A stretch of DNA of 381 nucleotides from Escherichia coli (GTDB lineage Bacteria; Pseudomonadota; Gammaproteobacteria; Enterobacterales; Enterobacteriaceae): the NCBI RefSeq assembly GCF_003334255.1, contig NZ_QOWU01000251.1. One strand, given 5' to 3'. The notes under the pieces are model-generated. The model ran no database searches, was not told the origin of the DNA, and saw only the letters and a program-made list of their open reading frames with translations. How positions within the stretch are numbered: the first letter of the stretch is position 1; every line of letters begins with the position of its first letter. Shown here in pieces: positions 1-381 of the stretch. A program made the translations under genes and the position numbers.

Positions 1-381
1 CGATTTTTTGAAGCAATATGGTGATTTTGAAAATGGTATTCCTGTTCACGATACCATTGCCAGAGTTGTATCCTGTATCAGTCCTGCAAAATTTCACGAG
101 TGCTTTATTAACTGGATGCGTGACTGCCATTCTTCAGATGATAAAGACGTCATTGCAATTGATGGAAAAACGCTCCGGCACTCTTATGACAAGAGTCGCC
201 GCAGGGGAGCGATTCATGTCATTAGTGCGTTCTCAACAATGCACAGTCTGGTCATCGGACAGATCAAGACGGATGAGAAATCTAATGAGATTACAGCTAT
301 CCCAGAACTTCTTAACATGCTGGATATTAAAGGAAAAATCATCACAACTGATGCGATGGGTTGCCAGAAAGATATTGCAGA
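1..381 (+). CDS. ISAs1-family DDE transposase (H-repeat-associated protein, YhhI/YdcC/YbfL-like), internal fragment truncated at both ends; codon phase begins at nt 2
   Basis: Frame starting at nt 2 is open for 126 codons through nt 379, while frame 1 has stops at 22-24, 28-30 and 109-111. The translation ([22 protein letters not shown]...[76 protein letters not shown]) matches my recollection of the E. coli H-repeat-associated / ISAs1-family transposase, roughly residues 55-180 of a ~378-aa protein. All three minus-strand frames contain stops (reverse-complement stops at + positions 46-48, 78-80 and 134-136). Paralog cannot be determined from the fragment, so no gene symbol is given. Not verified by database search. 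Confidence 0.9.
1..381 (+). mobile_element. Internal part of an ISAs1-family insertion sequence (H-repeat / ISEc1-like); element boundaries and terminal inverted repeats lie outside the window
   Basis: The only gene content is the ISAs1-family transposase ORF. From established knowledge, such elements are about 1.3 kb with a single transposase gene, so the element should extend a few hundred bp upstream and about 0.7 kb downstream. GC of about 41.7% is below the typical enterobacterial backbone, consistent with a mobile element. Confidence 0.8.

Follow-up and report, generated by a model that had tools for sequence, protein, structure and literature searches.

The candidate second catalytic aspartate of the ISEc1 (H-repeat) transposase YhhI, encoded beside rhsB in Escherichia coli

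The ISEc1 transposase gene in the window

The stretch of DNA analyzed here (the window, 381 nt) was 100% identical to the yhhI gene of E. coli K-12, which is annotated as an ISAs1-like element ISEc1 family transposase (H-repeat). In K-12 MG1655, the window was located at positions 3001-3381 of the yhhI region (L001), within the yhhI CDS (L001 2837-3973). The genes rhsB and yhhH were located upstream of yhhI and yhhJ was located downstream. Matches to the window occurred in 5,311 of the 5,426 complete E. coli genomes, at a median of 5 places in each. BLAST against the K-12 copies gave identities of 381/381 for yhhI, 378/381 for ydcC, 371/381 for ybfL and 362/381 for ybfD.

The sole open frame in the window was frame 2 of the + strand (nt 2-379, 126 codons), and the remaining two + frames had stops throughout. 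Window residue 1 corresponded to YhhI residue 56, so that this frame, assigned by its identity to yhhI and its match to NF033564, encodes an internal fragment of the ISEc1 (H-rpt, ISAs1 family) transposase, residues 56-181 of 378. The minus-strand ORFs comprised only 27 and 43 aa, were without any support and were dismissed as by-products of the coding strand.

The 126-aa window peptide matched the NCBIfam model NF033564 (ISAs1 family transposase) with 183.7 bits (E = 4.8e-54), the curated equivalog cut-off being 70 bits. Two Pfam domains were also detected on the + strand. The first was the C-terminal part of the N-terminal helical domain DDE_Tnp_1_assoc (PF13808; nt 2-118, window residues 1-39, model positions 50-88 of 88, E = 1.8e-10), and the second was the N-terminal part of the RNase H-like catalytic domain DDE_Tnp_1 (PF01609; nt 140-373, window residues 47-124, model positions 3-90 of 200, E = 1.1e-10). 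Within the latter, the segment ACAACTGATGCGATGGGT (nt 344-361) is translated in the + strand open frame as T-T-D-A-M-G (YhhI 170-175). Its Asp codon, GAT at nt 350-352, encodes D172, and the Asp of an upstream A-I-D-G-K motif, GAT at nt 161-163, is D109. As the matches of the window peptide to transposase models show, T-T-D-A-M-G is not a chance motif.

An earlier note, made from the letters of the window, had placed this motif and its Asp codon at these positions, and both were correct to the base. The second Asp had been put about 63 residues after the first, and the distance is exactly 63. A full ORF of about 378 aa had been expected, with the Glu of the triad beyond the window; yhhI encodes an uninterrupted protein of exactly 378 aa, without frameshift or premature stop, and the Glu (E306) lies outside the window. 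The reasoning from the raw sequence was right, including the length of the protein.

The full-length YhhI contained PF13808 at residues 8-94 (1.9e-33) followed by PF01609 at residues 102-343 (1.7e-29), which is the ISAs1 architecture of both domains in this order in a single ORF without a frameshift. BLAST between the K-12 copies set the ISEc1 unit at exactly 1,291 bp (L001 2693-3983), common to yhhI, ydcC and ybfL. Its termini were the imperfect inverted repeats CAGGGAAAGATCA and CAGGGCAAGATTA (reverse complement), matching at 11 of 13 positions and preserved in all three full-length K-12 copies. Scans for inverted repeats did not report these IS termini, which were evident only once the copy-to-copy BLAST had set the 1,291-bp unit. 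The ISAs1 elements in ISfinder are ~1.2-1.5 kb in length and have short terminal inverted repeats, and ISEc1 is within this family description in both respects. The window differed in nothing from ISEc1, the H-repeat of the E. coli Rhs loci (yhhI, ydcC, ybfD and ybfL), and the gene that it belongs to agreed with ISEc1 in its 378-aa ORF, in the 1,291-bp unit with its terminal inverted repeats and in its site downstream of rhsB and yhhH. PMC7482066 was considered as a source for ISEc1 and set aside, since it concerns ISEc10 instead.

Conservation and predicted fold around D172

A search of 1.84 billion cluster representatives identified 29,902 relatives of YhhI at E <= 1e-3. YhhI and 122 full-length representatives with 35-54% identity to it were aligned (alignment A1, n = 123). 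In A1, D109 and D172 were each Asp in 122 sequences and Glu in one, while E306, located in the motif H-W-x-[IV]-E-N, was Glu in all 123. The three acidic residues are near-invariant across the ISAs1 family, and the exceptions are solely Asp-to-Glu changes. G110 and K111, which follow the first Asp, were invariant (123/123). Around D172, conservation was 107/123 for T170, 122/123 for A173, 98/123 for M174 and 110/123 for G175, with a family consensus of T-I-D-A-M-G-C-Q. The position taken up by the second Thr of T-T-D-A-M-G is a hydrophobic one in a β-strand, and Thr is in the minority there. The D-D spacing of 63 residues, which the earlier note took to fit the usual distance between the first two Asps of DDE transposases, was found in 95/123 sequences and is the family mode (range 58-69). 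The D-E spacing ranged from 125 to 141 and was about 132. ISAs1, IS1358 and ISPmar4 (NF033564) share with YhhI the domains PF13808 and PF01609, the arrangement D-(63)-D-(about 132)-E and the motif HWxIEN..LHW.LD. A search of the literature yielded neither mutagenesis of any ISAs1-family triad nor triad positions for ISAs1.

An AlphaFold2 model of YhhI based on A1 was of high confidence, with a pLDDT of 94.9 and a pTM of 0.92. According to DSSP, the predicted order begins with strand β1 (residues 105-113, nt 149-175), which carries D109 in AIDGK, and continues with β2 (126-133), β3 (138-145), helix α1 (148-161) and β4 (168-171, I-I-T-T, nt 338-349). These are followed by α2 (178-186), β5 (190-195), helices at 197-216, a β-rich insertion at 221-286 and the long helix α4 (292-316), which holds E306. 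D172 is the residue directly after β4. The predicted model therefore displays the RNase H-like DDE topology, with an Asp on β1, an Asp just after β4 and a Glu on α4. D172 was mapped to position 83 of the PF01609 model from both directions, using full-length and truncated queries.

Conservation and the modelled topology together point to a catalytic role for D172 as the probable second carboxylate of D109/D172/E306. They agree with the proposal that the flagged Asp occupies a conserved catalytic position and is followed by a conserved downstream Glu. D172 could alternatively be conserved for folding or DNA binding, the catalytic carboxylates being other acidic residues such as E151, D314 or E319/D320. 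These residues are conserved to a comparable or greater degree in A1 (D314 123/123, E319 120/123, D320 122/123; E151 is given below). However, the site directly after β4 is where RNase H-like transposases and integrases canonically carry their second Asp, and it matches that of D188 in a parallel model of the Tn5 transposase, and the sole substitution observed at D172, Glu, retains the carboxylate. The "hydrophobic strand-D-A-x-G" pattern at D172, which we take to resemble the second-Asp (N3) region motifs of PF01609 transposases, also speaks against a non-catalytic function, and we regard such a function as very unlikely.

In DDE enzymes such as Tn5, IS10 and the retroviral integrases, three carboxylates hold two Mg2+ ions. 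By analogy, D109, D172 and E306 of YhhI would bind two Mg2+ ions, which would activate water for hydrolysis and cleavage at the transposon ends. The same ions would then activate the transposon 3'-OH for strand transfer into the target by transesterification.

A further conserved motif, K-S-N-E, opens the family signature K-S-N-E-I-T-A-I-P (nt 278-304, + strand) at the start of helix α1, with conservation of 117/123 for K148, 111/123 for S149, 122/123 for N150 and 123/123 for E151. E151 (GAG, nt 287-289) is located at the N-terminus of α1. RNase H has an extra catalytic Glu, E48, and E151 is presumably at roughly the same position. E151 could on this basis be a candidate fourth residue bordering the active site. 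In the Tn5 family, an invariant E161-S162 pair shortly precedes the family's own α1.

Comparison with Tn5 and the IS4 family

The Tn5 transposase was the best structural match to the RNase H-like fold of YhhI. The Tn5 sequence used was identical to the PDB chains save for engineered substitutions, and it was modelled likewise (pLDDT 91.9). In this model, D97 is in β1 (92-103), D188 is one residue past β4 (183-187) and E326 is in the helix 309-335 after the β insertion domain. These residues, the experimentally established triad of Tn5, were invariant in an alignment of 64 Tn5-family sequences (A2). As far as the models go, D109, D172 and E306 occupy the same places as D97, D188 and E326; we infer the equivalence of D172 and D188 from topology and conservation rather than from an explicit overlay. 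In PF01609 coordinates, E306 was at about position 163 and Tn5 E326 at about 164. The β-rich insertion domain of YhhI is positioned as in Tn5, which makes a Tn5-like cut-and-paste chemistry plausible for YhhI.

The likeness did not extend to the sequences. The Tn5 (IS50) transposase of the IS4 family (PDB 1MUH/1MM8) and YhhI were 9-11% identical, and the D-D spacing was 91 in Tn5 versus 63 in YhhI. The N-terminal DNA-binding domain (PF14706) and the C-terminal dimerisation domain (PF02281) of Tn5 were absent from YhhI. The PF01609 match on full-length Tn5 started at residue 125, past D97. The Tn5 fragment 1-195 gave no PF01609 match, and with the fragment 181-401 the match started at C187, corresponding to model position 56. 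Comparison of A1 with A2 by hhalign returned a spurious match of 63 columns with a probability of 0.3%, and no profile-profile similarity to Tn5 was detected, so that this comparison provided no sequence-based residue equivalence between YhhI and Tn5. Searches of all PDB chains with YhhI (phmmer) and with A1 (hmmsearch) returned only noise, CheY and YenC2 at E >= 0.6.

The IS4 family (Tn5/IS10/IS231) is characterized by the signature Y-(2)-R-(3)-E-(6)-K around the catalytic Glu (PMC2266710), which is formed by Y319/R322/E326/K333 in Tn5. The corresponding sequence of YhhI, A-I-R300-N-H-W-H-V-E306-N-K-L-H-W-R-L-D, does not contain this signature: its Arg occupies E-6 instead of E-4, E-7 is not a Tyr and E+7 is a Leu. 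YhhI therefore falls outside the IS4 family despite its Tn5-like fold, which is consistent with its classification in ISAs1.

We consider it very probable that the window is an internal piece of the ISEc1 transposase gene, identical to the yhhI copy beside rhsB in K-12, and that D172 supplies the second acidic residue of the triad D109/D172/E306 within an RNase H-like, Tn5-like catalytic domain. Since the window is the well-known ISEc1 yhhI and the Asp is the conserved second DDE residue, the flagged Asp is a correct but ordinary finding, an already known, textbook trait of an insertion sequence long described in E. coli. It has little importance beyond correct annotation, yhhI being among the most often sequenced genes in biology.

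State and mobility of the yhhI copy

From the open frame and the intact Asp, the earlier note had suggested a potentially functional copy rather than a decayed pseudogene. The full-length ORF, with all three residues of the triad, and the low dN/dS between copies bear out this suggestion, but the open frame and the Asp within the window were a weak argument for it. Two K-12 pseudogene copies, ybfL, in which codon 18 is a stop, and ybfD, which breaks off at residue 254, keep an open frame, AIDGK and DAMG throughout the segment equivalent to the window. The window alone therefore cannot prove a functional copy, and an intact motif within a window this short does not discriminate between live and dead IS copies. 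An intact copy can be concluded only from the identity of the window to the intact yhhI at all 381 positions. The same pseudogenes illustrate how the window could have come from a decayed ISEc1 copy with lesions beyond the 381 bases. Such an origin is very improbable, since among the K-12 copies the identity was highest to yhhI, and all 20 of the 20 matches listed at 100% were under intact transposase CDS features (yhhI, ydcC or unnamed).

Outside the window, YhhI differs from its ISAs1-family relatives at residue 198. This position is Thr in YhhI alone and Asn in 122/123 sequences of A1, as well as in YdcC, YbfD and YbfL (codon AAC). The Thr198 codon ACC is located at L001 3428-3430, 47 nt past the 3' end of the window, and the residue belongs to the sequence K-G-T-Q (family K-x-N-Q) directly after β5. 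R210 of Tn5, which contacts a DNA phosphate, would lie near the place equivalent to YhhI 198. Thr198 may attenuate a transposase that is otherwise intact. The exact 63-nt stretch with the ACC codon was the best match in 1,374 E. coli records and, among the matches listed, all were in yhhI, pointing to a fixed copy that is passed on by vertical inheritance. As an allele specific to yhhI, Thr198 offers a small lead on the long-standing question whether H-repeats still transpose.

No direct target-site duplication was found within 20 nt on either side of the yhhI, ydcC and ybfL copies in K-12. The flanks inspected were L001 2673-2692 and 3984-4003 for yhhI, 7653-7672 and 8964-8983 in the ydcC region (L002), and those around 8682 and 9972 in the rhsC region (L003). 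Old insertions or a later rearrangement could account for this result, which leaves the family membership of the protein unaffected.

These observations bear on whether D172, although correctly identified, belongs to an immobile or domesticated relic, in which the ORF and the triad were kept by selection for a host function or by gene conversion among copies. Such a relic state concerns activity and is compatible with D172 as the second Asp of the triad. It is in line with a change at a position otherwise conserved as Asn and located just after β5, with the restriction of the Thr198 stretch to yhhI among the matches listed and with the lack of target-site duplications around the ISEc1 copies. 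The dN/dS between ISEc1 copies was 0.06-0.19, which is low despite the apparent immobility. Transposition of H-rpt/ISEc1 was reported as not observed (PMC3032704), and in the K-12 mobilome the ISAs1 elements were without elevated coverage, the authors only suggesting rarer circular DNA (bioRxiv 10.1101/2024.07.17.603846). On the other hand, YdcC has the consensus Asn198 and is otherwise intact. In complete E. coli genomes the number of places with an ISEc1 window copy varied between 1 and 11 per genome, and 23 of the places were on plasmids; the variable copy number together with the plasmid places implies movement at some time. One study found abundant ISAs1-family reads on plasmids in stressed W3110 cultures (PMC9841684). 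Other members of the family were captured as active elements, for example ISPmar4 in trap plasmids (PMC3281130), whereas H-rpt has never been seen moving (PMC3032704). Weighing these points, we see a relic as a serious possibility that falls somewhat short of being probable. It seems unlikely that the yhhI ISEc1 encodes a catalytically intact but immobilised and possibly host-co-opted transposase, fixed beside rhsB in a large E. coli lineage, carrying the unique Asn198-to-Thr change and under purifying selection.

Other ISEc1-related sequences were detected near the K-12 copies. In the rhsC region (L003 8303-10926), three ISEc1-derived segments were arranged head to tail: ybfQ, a 380-bp 5' fragment; ybfL, the full-length copy with the stop at codon 18; and ybfD, consisting of an 889-bp 5' portion and a 67-bp 3' end. 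This arrangement points to nested or tandem insertion and a later internal deletion. Upstream of ydcC, the yncI pseudogene (L002 6761-7218) was a second and far more diverged ISAs1-like remnant, with 74-84% identity to ISEc1 over short stretches, and its presence beside ydcC indicates at least two lineages of the ISAs1 family at the E. coli rhsE locus. At yhhI itself, an incomplete "lyase" pseudogene with an internal stop (L001 2346-2696) overlapped the left end of ISEc1 (2693) by a few bases. This pseudogene may represent the insertion target of ISEc1, or an orphan Rhs C-terminal tip.
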